From assembly GCF_004010195.1 (NCBI RefSeq), contig NC_057751.1, positions 11,275,649-11,295,648 on the forward strand: 20,000 nucleotides of DNA, in the 5' to 3' direction. Below the pieces are notes generated by a model, which worked only from the letters and a program-made list of their open reading frames with translations, searched no databases and was not told the DNA's origin. Shown here piece after piece: positions 10,271 to 19,889 of this stretch (positions are counted from its first letter, which is position 1; each line of letters opens with the position of its first letter). This DNA is from Chiloscyllium plagiosum (taxonomy: Eukaryota). The translations under genes and the position numbers were made by a program.

Positions 10271-10460
10271 AACAGAGACATTGCTGGAGCAACGCAGCAG
10301 TCTGGCAGCATCTGTGGAGAGAGAAACAGAGACCCGTTCAGAACGGGACTCTAAATGGCCATGTTAACTCTGTTTGACCCAGTCCACAGACTCTGGCAGA
10401 CCTGCTGAGTTTCTCCAACAATTGGCTGTTTTTGTTTGAGATCCCCAGCACCCACAGTCG
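10271..10460. mobile_element. Decayed palindromic short element, Penelope-terminus-derived type
   Basis: Inverted arms TTGCTGGAG..CAGCAGTCTGGCAGCATCTGTGGA..AAACAGAG and CTCTGTTT..TCCACAGA..CAGACCTGCTGAGTTTCTCCAACAA. Related to the elements at 11065, 15582 and 18984. Confidence 0.7.
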
Positions 10461-10800: not shown

Positions 10801-11064
10801 GCTGAAGGAATACAACTTGGTTTAACACCTCTCTTCAATATCATCACACTGCGGGTAGCTCAACCTAATCAGAGTGGTCAACAGAGTTCAAACACACAGC
10901 ATTCCCTGTCAGTATCCAAGGACACCTTGGGAACATCTCGGAGAAATATTCAGCCCAGGATTATCAGATGTTCTCTGCACTTGACATGTGGACACGTGTG
11001 CATCCAGATTGCAGCAGTAATCCCCCAGGGCTAACAAACCCTGGCCGTCCTCCAGGAACGGCAA

Positions 11065-11224
11065 GGGCTGCAGACACTGCAGAGTCAGACTCAGAAAGTG
11101 TGGCGCTGGAAAAGCACAGCAGGTCAGGCAGGCAGCATCCGAAGGATTCCTGATGAAGAGCTTATGACCGAAACGTCGGCTCTCCTCCTCCTCAGATGCT
11201 TCCTGACGTGTTGTGCTTTTCCAA
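11065..11224. mobile_element. Palindromic Penelope-like short element with a degenerate hammerhead motif
   Basis: Arms TGGAAAAGCACAGCAGGTCAGG..GCAGCATC and GATGCTTCCTGACGTGTTGTGCTTTTCCA flank CTGATGAAGAGCTTATGACCGAAACGTC. Confidence 0.8.
11150..11177 (+). ncRNA. Degenerate minimal type I hammerhead ribozyme motif
   Basis: CUGAUGA-A-GAGC-UUAU-GACC-GAAA-CGUC. The core is intact, but stem II has two mismatches relative to the GGGC/GCCC stem of the 19082 copy. Confidence 0.5.
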
Positions 11225-12483
11225 ATCCTCTGTGACAGCCGGTCCACTGCTCAGGTGTTGCTGTCACATCCAGGCAGCCGATAGGACAGGGATCATCAGA
11301 ATGAGAGAAACACACTGCCACATTCTGCTCCATTTCCAACAAACCGGGACAATTATCGCACGCAGACACAGAACCAACACAATCCCCTCACTTCATCGAA
11401 ATACACCAACAGCATGGTTCCAGCCTGAAGGAGACTGTTCAGCCCATCACATTCTCTGCTGCTTACAAGCAAAAGCAAGCTCTGATCACTCCCTGCTCTA
11501 CCATCACCCAGAGAGTACAGATTCTCACTCCATTCCCGGGGGCCACTGTCAGTAACCCTGGATGAAAAGGATTGAATGGACAATTGCTGGATTGCTTGGT
11601 TGAGAGCACTGGCTCATCAGCTCTGTCACCTTGCTTCAGAGACACCCCCTTCTGATGGCTGTCCAAGGAGGCCCAGCACCTACCTGAGTATTGCTCAGGA
11701 GGAGGAGGAGGCTAAGTCAACTTGCCCCTCTTCAAACCAGGAAACCATGGGCAAACCAGGATAGTCACACAACCTGCAGTCAGTCAGCCCAGCAGAGGCC
11801 AGGGGTTGGACGCTGCACTCTGTGCTCTCAGGAACAGACCCACGGACTTTGCTCAGCAGCTTCACGGGCAGAGAATGGGAAACAAACAGTTGCTGGGATT
11901 TTCAAAAAGAATTTTAAAAAAGCAGACGGAGAGAAGGCAGCATGACAGGAGCAGAGTATTCACCTCATTCCAACACCAAAGTCCTTCTTACAACATAACA
12001 AAGTCAATGCCCAAGCATTCTCTTCCATCACATCATTTAGTATTCATATAGCACCTTGAACAACACACAAAAATCCCAAGGGACTTCACAAGGCAACAAC
12101 CAGTAGTTCATGTTGGGCCATCTTATTCTGCACTAGCATGAGGAGATTGTGCACTGTATAATCACAGACATTTCATATTCGATCCCATCAAAACCTCGGA
12201 ACAGGCCACAGGGGAATAAGGATCCAAAACAGACAGGAGGACAGAATGGGATGCAACCTGCCCTCAGTTAGTGCCCTCTCTCCTGGGATCAGCATCCTCC
12301 CTATCAGGTTCCCTCAGGGTCTGTCCCCCATCTCCCCGGAGACCAGCCTGGTGATCCCTCTCTCCCTCAGGATCAGCCTCCTCCCCTCTCTCCCTCGGGA
12401 TCAGCTTCCTCCCCTCCCTCGGGATCAGCCTCCTCCCCTCTCTCCCTCGGGATCAGCCTCCTCCCCTCTCTCCCTCAGGATAA

Positions 12484-12794
12484 GGGCGGCACGTTGGCAC
12501 AGTGGTTAGCACTGCTGCCTCACAGCGCCAGAGATCCGGGTTCAATTCCCACCTCAGGCGACTGTGTGGAGTTTGCACGTTCTCCCCGTGTCTGCGTGGG
12601 TTTCCTCCGGGTGCTCCGGTTTCCTCCCACAGTCCAAAGATGTGCAGGTCAGGTGAATTGGCCATGCTAAATTGCCCGTAGTGTTAGGTAAGGGGTAAAT
12701 GTAGGGGTATGGGTGGGTTGCGCTTCGGCGGGTCGGTGTGAACTTGTTGGGCCGAAGGGCCTGTTTCCACACTGTAATCTAATCTAATCTAATC
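12484..12794 (+). mobile_element. Full-length, young HE1-type V-SINE inserted in the minisatellite
   Basis: Starts GGGCGGCACG. A box at 12495-12505, B box at 12539-12549, V domain, LINE-like 3' stem-loop GGCCGAAGGGCC and an (AATCT)n tail. Many CpGs are retained. Confidence 0.96.
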
Positions 12795-13139
12795 AGCCTC
12801 CTCCCCTCTCTCCCTCGGGATCAGCTTCCTCCCCTCTCTCCCACTCCCTCGGGATCAGACTCCTCCCCTTTTCCTCGGGATCAGCCTCCTCCCCACTCTC
12901 CCTCTCCCTCGGGATCAGCCTCCTCCCCTCTCTCCCACTCCCTCGGAATCAGACACCTCCCCTCTCCCTTGGGACCAGCCTCCCTACCCCCACTGTCCCT
13001 CTCCCTTGGGAGCAGCCTCCCTCTTCTCTGCCTCTCCCTCGGGATCAGCCTCCCTCTTCTCTGCCTGTCCCTCGGGATCAGCCTCCCTCTTCTCTCCCTC
13101 TCCCTTGGGATCAGCCTCCCGCTCCCTCAGGATCAGCCT

Positions 13140-14077: not shown

Positions 14078-14958
14078 CCCTCTCTCCCTCTTCCTCAGGA
14101 TCAGCCTCTCTCCCTGCTCCCTCTCCCTCAGGATCAGCCTTCCTACCTCCCCCCACTCCCTGATTCTGGGACCTGGGGGCCAGAATGAGACGGTGTACAA
14201 TCCCACTGTACCCCCCCGCTCACCATTGCCTCACTTCCCTCCCCATTTTGCGGGCTCAGAGCTGCAGTTGAAACGGGAGGAAAGGATTTCATGTTGGGAA
14301 TCTCGGTGGGGGGGAGACACAGGGACAGGATTGAGGAAGGAGCGAGCGTGGCTTTCTGTCCCGAAACCATTGTAAAATAATAAAACACACAGACAGAGAC
14401 AGACAGAGACACTGGGACACAGCAGAGCCCAGTTTCCATTCAACCGAAACAACCAGAAGGGGCTCAGCGTTTGCCAGAGATCCCGGGGTTTGCAGGGAGC
14501 GGGGGGGGGGCTCCCAAAGCCCGCCTTTCCCTCTCCCTCCTCTCTCCTTCCTTCTCCGGGTGCATCCAAGCTCCTTCCCCGGGAAAAGGTCCGTCTCGCT
14601 GCGTTTTCCCAGCGTCTGCCCTGAACCGGGGCTTGGAGGGGGGGAAGGACCACTTCCAACAGGGACCACCCCCGGGAATGGTGAGGAGATGGGGCCGGAA
14701 AAGGCTATGCGTTTCCATCCGAACCCGACTCCAAAGCCCCCTCCAGCCTGCAATCCCCCCCTCCCTGGGCGAGAGGGACGCGCGGGAGCACAGGCTCCAA
14801 ACAAAGGCAGCAGCCAAACTTTGGCTAACTTTTCTTTAGTTTCTCTCTCTCTCTCTCTCCCCACTCCCCTGGAAAGTTGCCTTTGTTCTGCGTGAGTCGG
14901 AGAGGAGTCTGTGTCTCTGTCTGTCCCCATTCCCTTGGAGCAGCAGCAACACACTCAC

Positions 14959-15110
14959 CCCCGGGCTCAGAGAGCCGAGCTTCGGGCAGCCTCTCAGTCC
15001 GCACCGCTCCCCCTTCTCGCTGCTGCCTCCATCGCTCCTGCGTTTTATCTTTCCTCCTTGGAGCTGGAGAGAGAGAGAGAGAGAGAGAGAAGGGGAGGGG
15101 GGTAGTAAAG
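14959..15110 (-). other. Candidate non-coding first exon of a minus-strand gene (5' boundary uncertain)
   Basis: Consensus donor GGG|GTGAGT with the intron starting at 14958, inside the CpG island. Contains a 12-aa uORF at 15032-14994. Confidence 0.4.
15067..15090 (+). repeat. (GA)n microsatellite
   Basis: About 11 GA units. Confidence 0.95.
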
Positions 15111-15268
15111 GGGGTGGTACACGTGATGCTGCTCACACTGAGATAGATAAAGAGGTAGGTTGGGTTTCTCCTTTGAGTGTTTGCTCTGAGCTGTGTGTGT
15201 GTCTCTCAGCAGTTGCAAGGTGCTGGGTATTTCCCCCCGCGAACCTCCCTCCCTCTCCCCCTCTCTCT

Positions 15269-15288
15269 CACACACACACACACACACA
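15269..15288 (+). repeat. (CA)n microsatellite following a (CT)n tract
   Basis: About 10 CA units. Confidence 0.95.
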
Positions 15289-15581
15289 AAGACCTTTCCC
15301 CCCCTCTCTGGTGTTCCTCCCGCTTCACGACCGAGGTGTGCTCCCCGCCTCAAAATAAAATCCAGAAAGCAACCCTCTCTCCCAGCGCCCTGCCCTGTCT
15401 GTGAGGGAACACAAACTTCCAGTGAAATGGGATCCCATTGGGATTGGCCTTGCTGTCTCTCCCTCCGGCACCGGGCCAGTGGCAGCCTGGCACCCCACAA
15501 CATCGGCACAGCAAGATCCCAACGGGATTTTTTTTTTTGCTCGAGGTGACAACTGAAAGCTGCACTCTTCAGTCTCTAATC

Positions 15582-15892
15582 CTGGAAAAGCACAGCAGGT
15601 CAGGCAGTGTCCTAGGAGCAGGAAAATCGACATTTCGGGCAAAAGCATCATGGTGGCTCAGTGCATTGCTGCTTCCAAGTGCCAGGGACCTGGGTTTGAT
15701 TCCAACTCTGGATGACTCTCTGTGCAGAGCTTACACATTCTCACTGTGTCTGCATGGGTTTCCACTGGGTGCTCTGGTTCCCTGAAACGTCGATTTTCCT
15801 GCTCCTCGGATGCTGCCTGACCTGCTGTGCTTTTCCAGCACTACTCTAATCTTGACTCTGATCTCCAGCATCTGCAGTAGCCACTTTCACCT
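15582..15892. mobile_element. Palindromic Penelope-like element whose centre is occupied by an HE1 SINE 5' fragment (about 15650-15781)
   Basis: Left arm CTGGAAAAGCACAGCAGGTCAGGCAG..GGAGCAGGAAAATCGACATTTCGGG pairs with right arm CCTGAAACGTCGATTTTCCTGCTCC..CTGCCTGACCTGCTGTGCTTTTCCAG. Flanked by AGTCTCTA(A/T)TCCTG at 15571-15584 and 15893-15906. Confidence 0.85.
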
Positions 15893-17087: not shown

Positions 17088-17781
17088 GAACAGAGCATTG
17101 CAGCCATGACAATCAAGTGGACCGATAGTCGTCAAGATTAAGAGCTCGGTTTTAAACATGAATGGTTTCAGAGATCTCCAAATCCAGTGGTGCCCCCTCC
17201 TCACCAGAAGGTCCCAGATAGGGAAGGGTTAAATTCTGTCCTCACCTCTACTAAAACCTTGACTGATATCAACCTGGGATCTTTCTGTACAGCTCTATTC
17301 AAGCCACAGATATTTTTGTCTTGATTTTGATCCTAAAACCAATACTCTGGTAACAAGTACTGTGGTACTCTGCGTGGGTTTCCTCCGGGTGCTCCGGTTT
17401 CATCCCACAGTCACAAAGATGTGCGGGTCAGGTGGAACAGAGCATTACAGCCGTGACAATCAAGTGAACCGATAGTCATCAAGATTAAGAACTCGATTTT
17501 AAACATGAATGGTTTCAGAGATCTTCAAACCCAGTGGTGCCCCCTCCTCACCAGAAGGTCCCAGATAGGGAAGGGTTAAATTCTGTCCTCACCTCTACTA
17601 AAACCTTGACTGATATCAACCTGGGATCTTTCTGTACAGCTCTATTCAAGCCACAGATATTTTTGTCTTGATTTTGATCCTAAAACCAATACTCTGGTAA
17701 CAAGTACTCTGGTACTCTGCGTGGGTTTCCTCCGGGTGCTCCGGTTTCATCCCACAGTCACAAAGATGTGCGGGTCAGGTG
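17088..17781 (+). repeat. Direct tandem duplication of 347 bp (17088-17434 and 17435-17781)
   Basis: GAACAGAGCATT...GATGTGCGGGTCAGGTG occurs twice head-to-tail, with 9 substitutions and no indels. Confidence 0.97.
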
Positions 17782-17919: not shown

Positions 17920-18983
17920 GAAGACAGCCAGCTTTTAAACCAGCACACATGTAAGCCTTTTTACCAGTATTGTAAAGCCTTCTGTTTTACATGAAACGAT
18001 ACCGGAAATCGGAGGATTCATTTGCGACCTTTTGGATTGAAAAAGAATAAACCTTGAACTCAAGTCACAGGATTTGTGACGGAACTTGCTCATACTGTTG
18101 TCAATCACCTATGCACACATTACATGTTAGCACAACAAGCAATTGCATCTTTCCATAAACTGTTGCGTTTACATTTACTTTAGTGCAAACAGTTATTTAC
18201 TGAAATATTTCATTTACAACATTCAGAAGGTCAGTTGAAAATGCAGCACAGGAAATGATTAGCATTAGACAAATAAAATGCAGATATATGTGTGTGTTCT
18301 TTCTGAACCCATCTGTACAGTTTTTGCTGCCTGTCCTGGCATTGTCCTCAGTCTGTGAAACTCCATCAGTCCATCTGTTTTTAGCTCCTGCTGTCAGGAG
18401 ATCTCCTGTCATGCTATGCACCATCCAAACACATCTTCTGTAGCCTGTCCACAACCACTGTATGACATCCATCATCCAACTCCACCCAGATCACCTCCTC
18501 TGTCTCTCTGCTGCCCTCTACTCTGCCCTCCAGGAGGAAGCTCTCCAGCTTCTCAGCTCAGATTAGATCTATCCAAGAAAACACACAACAGACACACCAA
18601 TACAGAGCGTGTTTTCATTGTCCGATAGATTGACAATGTAATATATTATGGACCAGACCGGACCATCTCAACAGATATGAAGAAGATAGCCCAGAGCCTA
18701 ACTTTTTCTTATTTTAAAGACAAGTGCAAGGTTTTGAATTGCATATGCAATTCAATTGGTCAAACAACCAGATTTGAAGCAAAACACACTTTATTCATTC
18801 ACAATAGTTAAAATACAACAAAAGAAAGAGGAAATTGGAATAACTGAACTCGATTGCAAAATTTAACAGAATAAAAGACTATTTTACAACAAGAAAGTAA
18901 CTGTTGCAACATAGTAACATCCCCAACAACACACACTTGACAAAAGCAAAGTCAATAAAATCGATTGTCTCCCATTCAATTCG

Positions 18984-19125
18984 GGGAGAAAGTGAGGACT
19001 GCAGATGCTGGAGATCAGAGCTGAAAATGTGTTGCTGGAAAAGCGCAGCAGGTCAGGCAGCATCCAGCGAACAGGAGAATCGACGTTTCGGGCATAAGCC
19101 CTTCTTCAGGAATGAGGAAAGTTTG
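18984..19125 (-). mobile_element. 142-bp young Penelope-like terminal fragment with a perfect 14-bp target-site duplication
   Basis: TCCCATTCAATTCG at 18970-18983 and 19126-19139. The body (CTGCAGATGCTGGAGATCAGAG...CTGGAAAAGCGCAGCAGGTCAGGCAGCATCC...TCGACGTTTCGGGC) is the reverse complement of the right arm of the 15582 element. Confidence 0.9.
19082..19109 (-). ncRNA. Minimal type I hammerhead ribozyme motif
   Basis: The minus strand reads CUGAAGA-A-GGGC-UUAU-GCCC-GAAA-CGUC. It has all core nucleotides, a perfect 4-bp stem II, a palindromic ACGU helix III and a GUC cleavage triplet. Confidence 0.7.
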
Positions 19126-19473
19126 TCCCATTCAATTCGAGCAGCCCAGGAGGAAAAACGTAATGAGAAAACTCCGAGAGAGAGTGAGAGTAGCAGGGAG
19201 AGATGCACTTCTGCTTCCAAACCCAGCCACAAGACCCCAACAATAATTGTGAGTGAAACAAAAGATCCCTAGTTCTGTGAGAGCTCAATCACACCCATTC
19301 AGGCTGCTTCTATTGTTCCAACTTTAAAAGAAACCTAAGGACTCACATAGTGTTTACTCCAGTGTTTACATTCTGTGCAGTTTGGAAGGTGAATTTGGTC
19401 AAAGTCATTGTGATATTCAGGTTAAAAATCACAGAACACCAGATTATAGTCCAACAGGTTTATTTGAAAGTAC

Positions 19474-19502
19474 AAACTTTCAGAGCACTGCTCCTTCATC
19501 AG
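19474..19502 (-). ncRNA. Second-family minimal hammerhead motif, partly degenerate
   Basis: CUGAUGA-A-GGAGC-AGU-GCUCU-GAAA-GUUU. Stem II is 5 bp with one G-U pair, and helix III AGUU is one change from palindromic AGCU. Confidence 0.55.
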
Positions 19503-19889
19503 TTAGCTAGTGGGGCAGGACCATAGGACACAGAATCTATAACAAAAGATCATTGTGCCATACAACTGAGATGATATGTTGAACAAACCTAGATTGCTGT
19601 GAAATCTTTTATCTTTTCGAATGGGTTGCAGGTTTCAATTCAGCGACACGTAAATCCCAGAACAACTTCCAAATCACAGTCCTGAGATAACTTAAGGTTT
19701 TATTAAAAAAAAGCGATATCTCAGCTCACATAATGCATTTAAGGTGTGAGGTTAGAGTCTGTCTGTATTCCAATCATGAGCCTTACTGGTTCTATTTCCA
19801 AAGTAGGAATTGATAAAATGTCACATGGATTGACTGCCGACAGACTGTGCTTTTTGAACAAAAGTGTGTCCGTGTGATGTAATACAGGC

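Follow-up and report, generated by a model that had tools for sequence, protein, structure and literature searches.

The window, by which we mean the whole 20-kb stretch of DNA analysed here, contains a 142-bp insertion on the minus strand (18984..19125) that is flanked by two plus-strand copies of a 14-bp target-site duplication, one at the element's 3' end (18970..18983) and one at its 5' end (19126..19139). The window contains just two exact copies of the 14-mer, starting at 18970 and 19126, in agreement with the perfect duplication described in a first-pass annotation of this DNA. Positions in the insert are numbered q1 to q142 along the minus strand, with q1 at 19125, q13 at 19113, q44 at 19082 and q141 at 18985. 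The insert carries, all on the minus strand, a minimal type I hammerhead motif (19078..19113), a 26-codon upstream reading frame that starts in loop II (19015..19095), and an optional tail of about 34 bp (18985..19018). A six-frame listing of 40 kb around the insertion gave no convincing coding exon of a host gene.

The ends of the insertion are blurred by microhomology. The last three bases of the duplication (GGA on the minus strand; 19126-19128, within the 5'-end copy) also match the element's upstream sequence, which leaves a 3-nt microhomology at the 5' joint, and the target starts with TCGAA, the same five bases as the element's continuation bar one mismatch at 18984. The minus-strand base at 18984 differs from both the element's continuation and the empty-site base, and is either a later substitution or a non-templated base. 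Read from sequence, the duplication could also be 15 bp long with one change.

We examined positions 18600-19400 in four DNA runs, X5 and X13 from organism B and X1 and X3 from organism A. Both organism-B runs, which come from two studies, yielded contigs (609 nt from X5, 334 nt from X13) that pass straight from 18969 to 19126 with 142-184 letters on either side; they hold a single copy of the 14-mer and lack the insert and one duplication copy. The flanks differ by about 2% (7 substitutions and 1 gap in 334 positions; 6 differences in 297). Runs X1 and X3 of organism A yielded a contig that extends from 19099, inside the element, into the right flank; with only 27 element letters it falls below the bridging threshold of 31, and it fits a filled site. 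The DNA run that covers the locus best may derive from the sample used for the assembly. A search of sequencing runs listed no RNA run containing this locus, which counts neither for nor against its transcription. Since the site is empty in organism B, the insertion is younger than the split of the two close lineages. The first-pass annotation had called this a recent retroposed insertion and had suggested looking for an empty site; both points are borne out by a relative about 2% diverged in the flanks. As a presence/absence marker, the insertion cleanly separates two closely related shark-like lineages. In itself it is of little import: tens of thousands of such copies exist, and no coding gene is evident close by.

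Several other repeats lie in the window. Older pieces of the insert's repeat are found at 10281-10421, 11064-11223, 15582-15646 and 15781-15891. The piece at 11064-11223 is a head-to-head inverted pair with one broken pair in stem II, and another older inverted pair (15582-15891) is broken at about 15647-15780 by a further repeat piece, presumably resembling a tRNA-derived SINE, with additional copies at 1405, 10519, 12477 and 16146. A second, unrelated minimal-hammerhead repeat occupies 19410-19510 on the minus strand, 280 bp from the insert; its core spans 19502-19474, its stem II has 5 bp, and its palindrome is decayed. No reverse transcriptase (RT) or endonuclease (EN) reading frame was found beside it in the right part of the window and the next 10 kb. 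C-rich units of 24-34 bp form an array around an assembly gap (12274-13139 and 14079-14161), and next to it a GC-rich stretch (about 14400-15300) is a possible promoter region. Near-perfect tandem duplications (97%) of 347 bp at 17088-17781 and of 139 bp at 1752-2028 are either recent events or assembly artefacts.

Hammerhead Motif

The minus strand from 19109 to 19082 reads CUGAAGA-A-GGGC-UUAU-GCCC-GAAA-CGUC, with the predicted cut between 19082 and 19081. The 5' strand of helix I (19113-19110) is followed by CUGAAGA (19109-19103), an extra A (19102), stem-loop II (19101-19090), GAAA (19089-19086), CGUC (19085-19082) and the 3' strand of helix I (19081-19078). All the marks of a minimal hammerhead ribozyme (min-HHR) are present: CUGANGA, the extra base, a stem II with G10.1-C11.1, GAAA, a palindromic 15.2-16.2 and NUH. 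This matches the earlier description of an intact minimal core of the type I form known from Penelope-like elements (PLEs), in which an additional base follows A9, position 15/16 is palindromic and helix I is weak (G-C, A-U, U.U, U-A).

A 31-nt pattern of the intact core matches exactly at 64,938 places genome-wide and at none in a reversed control, so the hammerhead match is not due to chance. We also applied a relaxed hammerhead descriptor to 118 stretches taken at round coordinates (1,155,594 non-N bases), which returned 85 matches as opposed to 0 in each of five shuffles. These matches represent at least four families, including that of the repeat at 19410-19510 (18 of the 85), and their stem II and helix I sequences differ, as does the palindrome (CG or GC), with pairing kept. 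Features beyond the descriptor recur as well: the extra base follows A9 in all 85, G occupies 10.1 in 84, and positions 2.1-1.1 and 2.2-1.2 are paired in 70 and 77, respectively. Stem II and helix I thus covary between families, as the first-pass annotation had asked of stem II. Within the insert's own family (96 copies), variation is confined to the loop, N7 and one helix I position. The companion question, whether the core is better conserved than its surroundings, was answered modestly in its favour: non-CpG core columns score 0.958, the 3' flank 0.894, and N7/loop II 0.733 in these 96 copies, which share ancestry and are not independent. No hammerhead family appeared among the 11 weak Rfam matches in the window (E<=10).

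One subfamily has the loop CUGU (L111, L181, L189, L196, L208 and L245). In these copies a change at helix I position 1.3 turns U.U into U-A and completes a perfect 4-bp helix I, and the subfamily would be the best candidate for cleavage among family copies.

Parent Element

A search of 3.56 Gb of genome DNA returned 320 candidates, of which 40, window included, were scored; the 39 other copies are full or near-full and 92-100% identical over most of the insert. The sequence continues upstream in 13 of 29 other best-matching loci, and an inverted partial copy lies directly on the 5' side in 11 of the 29. In longer copies, this upstream sequence runs into an ORF with GIY-YIG and RT, and a fragment of the RT found 76,375 first-look candidates in the genome. 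Among 20 stretches picked for long RT frames, 19 hold a piece of the unit, and four (L062, L066, L073 and L078) hold a nearly full unit (94-97%) on the same strand downstream of RT. The parent ORF encodes RT followed by GIY-YIG in one frame and contains DKG, YIDD, a Cx4CxxC linker and the GIY-YIG motif. Pfam RVT_1 scored above its cut-off in the longer ORFs, GIY-YIG just below (21.4-21.5 vs 22.6 bits), and PF01541 was found on several homologues of the ORF. Three short fragments gave no Pfam match, a PDB sequence search with the ORF gave none either, and an intact full-length ORF in one piece was not seen among the stretches inspected. The closest named proteins come from Chiloscyllium punctatum (up to 83%), Rhincodon, Stegostoma, Mobula and Hypanus, which marks the host as shark-like.

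The unit also lies on the other side of the ORF. At two of 30 loci walked to the 5' end (L085 and L087) it continues past q141 into the ORF, which is the partial tandem arrangement of PLEs, and at L073 it likewise flanks the ORF on both sides. The same 142 bp therefore form the end of copies with RT and GIY-YIG and, where copies stand in partial tandem, serve as 5' leader to the ORF that follows. The start codon of the main ORF, at q179, aligns with residue 1 of full-length homologues. Since it lies outside the 142-bp copy, the insert consists of 5' leader, or pLTR, and is non-coding bar the 26-codon upstream frame. At L085, putative-RNA contigs from two studies (X16 and X17) join position 880 to 619; the resulting 262-nt unit, which reaches from the fixed 5' start described below into the ORF start, may represent either a circular RNA or a tandem of the retrozyme kind.

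The family displays the features of EN+ PLEs: RT then GIY-YIG in one ORF, a partial-tandem pLTR, an optional tail of 30-40 bp, inverted 5'-truncated copies, a target-site duplication and an empty site. A spliceosomal intron, which occurs in the pLTR of some PLEs, left no splice joint in the RNA reads, where depth past q141 is below 10 reads. A CX2-5CxxC linker between RT and EN and CCHH in EN are present and suggest the Neptune clade, an assignment by motifs in which the layout is common to Neptune and Nematis and the linker also occurs in Nematis.

We are highly confident that the 142-bp insert is the 5'-truncated 3' end (pLTR plus the tail of about 34 bp) of an autonomous Neptune-type PLE, absent in a close relative, likely inserted by the element's own endonuclease and RT, with the hammerhead likely carried uncut. 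The idea of a stand-alone non-coding unit, put forward in the first-pass annotation, has to be given up: the sequence continues upstream into the RT/GIY-YIG ORF and, in partial tandems, downstream into the ORF start. Truncated ends of this autonomous element number in the tens of thousands, and the insert is one of them.

Ends of the Family Copies

Young copies have two preferred 3' ends, which delimit the tail: among 94 such ends, 41 lie at q141-143 and 25 at q104-108. An optional tail of 30-40 bp is known from EN+ PLEs (PMC8557442, in the available part of that account), and in PAc, a Poseidon element, it has been tied to two internal RT start sites (PMC11167929). An exact upstream repeat of at least 12 bases accompanies 22 of 47 tail-bearing ends. 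Once the insert itself and two tandem-array copies are set aside, 44 copies remain; 19 of them have exact duplications of 12-18 bp, and 11 of these 19 measure 14-15 bp, so the 14-bp duplication of the insert is typical of the family. We considered general priming by 3' microhomology and rejected it, since 45 of the 47 ends match the element's continuation by 0-2 bases; just two match by at least four. Inversions account for 27 of 71 young ends.

The 5' ends are concentrated as well. Eight of the 71 young copies end at gaps or edges; 29 of the other 63 start at q8-22, which corresponds to 1.9 starts per base as opposed to 0.04 from q-100 to q7 and 0.16-0.47 downstream (counts from random stretches in which arms of inverted pairs are not independent). 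Genome-wide, start-pattern matches number 7,190 at q13, 403 at q9 and 2,024 at q17; the A at q13 stands four bases before the core. The same position is the commonest 5' loose end in organism-A RNA reads, where the 169 reads concerned represent genomic junctions inside host transcripts. The initiator consensus is YYANWYY. The bases q11-17 conform to it with A+1 at q13 and form an initiator-like heptamer (19109..19115, minus strand) whose A at 19113, the commonest 5' end of the family, is the putative transcription start. The insert itself starts at q1, 12 bases upstream of q13, and because of this it must have come from a longer template by plain truncation. A second family, with AGTT in the same place, gave 72 matches at A -4, 19 at C3 and 93 with initiator-like upstream bases, although some of the 93 are possibly inversion joints and the preference is weaker than in the insert's family.

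Folding and Cleavage

In folding calculations, stem II forms with a probability of 0.96-0.99, and helix I reaches at most 0.006. In this model, which disregards core contacts, Mg and protein, the best dimer fold has -24.1 kcal/mol and the active one -9.5 kcal/mol, a difference of 14.6 kcal/mol. The motif is predicted to cleave only weakly, as a dimer or with protein help. PLE hammerheads reportedly cleave as dimers, an observation ascribed to Lunse et al. Such motifs have been described as inactive alone and weak as dimers (PMC4209133, as far as its available text goes), and a hammerhead of this kind is protein-assisted and dispensable for insertion in vitro (PMC11167929). The motif is selected in master elements, where it would likely cleave slowly as a dimer or with the element's protein; a lone copy with a helix I of 2-4 bp would likely be silent.

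Copies that start at the cut site (q45) are few: the pattern matches 201 times as opposed to 48 at q49, the one control position, and 16 of 30 inspected q45-start copies are inversion joints explained by helix I microhomology. RNA run X21 contains 1,917 reads from the family, of which 88% continue into unlike sequence; these reads therefore stem from genomic copies embedded in host transcripts and not from RNA of the element itself. Neither read starts nor read ends pile up on the element in this run; run X22 contributed 0 reads.

Discussion

We propose the following route for the 142-bp copy. An element RNA reaching past q141 would have been bound by its own RT-EN protein. The GIY-YIG domain would have nicked the target with a stagger of 14-15 bp, as the 12-18 bp duplications of the family and the work on PAc (PMC11167929) suggest. 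RT would then have primed within the RNA at the distal (tail) start site and copied 141 nt through the entire hammerhead, and the cDNA would have joined the other target end through the 3-nt microhomology. Because the copy spans q44/45, its template was uncleaved at the predicted site. Without an ORF, and without the ORF-start region further downstream that the protein of a related element needs on its RNA, the product would be dead on arrival and is likely inert.

A unit that multiplies independently, resembling a retrozyme or SINE and spreading through self-cleaved or circular RNA with a borrowed PLE enzyme, would account for the many copies in which fixed start and fixed end delimit about 129 bp, for the head-to-tail joints (19113 to 18985) of this 129-bp unit that each of the four DNA runs contains, and for the 262-nt head-to-tail joint in two putative-RNA contig sets; non-LTR retrozymes derived from pLTRs do exist (10.64898/2026.07.22.740005, in its available part). 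The insert, however, stands alone, begins 12 nt before the fixed start with 5' sequence that is just the element's own upstream sequence, and has no end at the cut site, where starts are few and about half of those inspected are the inversion joints mentioned above. For the insert itself we consider this origin very improbable and largely refuted. Capture of a fragment of element RNA or DNA during double-strand-break repair, without the element's endonuclease, would fit the microhomology at both joints (3 nt, and 4-5 nt with one mismatch), the more so as 3'-end microhomology of at least four bases is rare in the family (2 of 47). Against this, the 3' end coincides with the main start site of the family and the length of the duplication is the modal one; since the insert matches both family signatures, we regard break repair as extremely unlikely.

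What fixes the 5' start of the family is a separate question. We tentatively suggest, with a little less than even confidence, that the mRNA starts at the initiator, its +1 A being the first base of hammerhead helix I, and that RT primes inside the 5' leader; most insertions would then not be truncated at random but represent full run-off cDNAs, 95 or 129 nt long. On this model the simplest reading may be that the short copies were made by run-off from leader RNA left uncut. For PLEs, initiator-containing promoters have been located in the pLTR (PMC2377424 and PMC3846280, in the parts available). The same start could instead reflect an endonuclease nick or microhomology hotspot at ATT, or helix I pairing between two cDNAs, and to such a cause we would give a chance that falls just short of one in two. 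The PAc endonuclease prefers ATT (PMC11167929), and among 30 loci examined all five simple junctions with a duplication abutting q13 show 2-3 nt of AT or ATT microhomology and no cap-type extra G; the missing pile of starts in RNA reads points the same way. Yet the ATT at q46-48 and the one near q98 show no pile of starts of similar size, the second family prefers the A at -4 although it carries AGTT, and the site fits the initiator consensus, PLE promoters being located in the pLTR. If true, the run-off model would account at once for three things: the solo minimal hammerheads that swarm in vertebrate genomes, the inverted head-to-head insertions in which one arm has a tail, and the copying of an uncut ribozyme.

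The family is more telling than the insert. It comprises some 65,000 intact cores and has its 3' ends and 5' start fixed, which makes it a large natural record of how PLEs prime, copy and join, in a cycle that is still poorly understood.

Comparison with Known Systems

Minimal hammerheads in PLEs are already published; new here are the empty site and the initiator reading of the fixed start. In the papers searched we found neither a description of the shark family nor one of a start fixed at the edge of the hammerhead, although the supplements of PMC4209133 and 10.64898/2026.07.22.740005 may list the family; the latter study sampled one chondrichthyan, according to its available part. Cervera and De la Pena (2014, PMC4209133) described min-HHRs in the pLTRs of metazoan PLEs, including Neptune, Poseidon and Xena of fish. 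As far as that account is available, its motifs share with ours a type I core without helix III and loop 3, the extra base between 9 and 10.1, G10.1-C11.1, the palindromic 15.2-16.2, a short helix I and the occurrence mostly as single motifs on truncated PLEs. In contrast, stem II here has just 4 bp, and our one pattern matches exactly 64,938 times, compared with about 4,000 minimal motifs in coelacanth and about 9,000 in Xenopus; the available part names no shark family.

With the Neptune-clade EN+ PLEs of Craig et al. (2021, PMC8557442, likewise in its available part) the element shares a single ORF with RT then GIY-YIG, DKG, the CX2-5CxxC linker, 5' truncation, partial tandems, inverted 5' copies and a tail of 30-40 bp, whereas a strong fixed 5' start at the hammerhead edge does not figure in that part of the account. 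PAc, the Poseidon element of Anolis carolinensis (Frangieh et al. 2024, PMC11167929), resembles the shark element in its two internal RT start sites that define the tail, little 3' target homology, insertion from uncleaved RNA and a minimal hammerhead near the ORF start. In PAc, however, stem II marks the beginning of the ORF, within which RT starts; here 135 nt separate the cut site from the start of the main ORF, and the leader contains both RT start sites. PAc also belongs to the Penelope/Poseidon clade, described without a linker zinc finger, whereas the shark element has the linker. Non-LTR retrozymes (10.64898/2026.07.22.740005, in the part available) are likewise derived from pLTRs, non-coding and equipped with a type I hammerhead, but they are tandems of at least two consecutive hammerhead units, whereas the insert is a solo stub between unique flanks, bounded by a target-site duplication.
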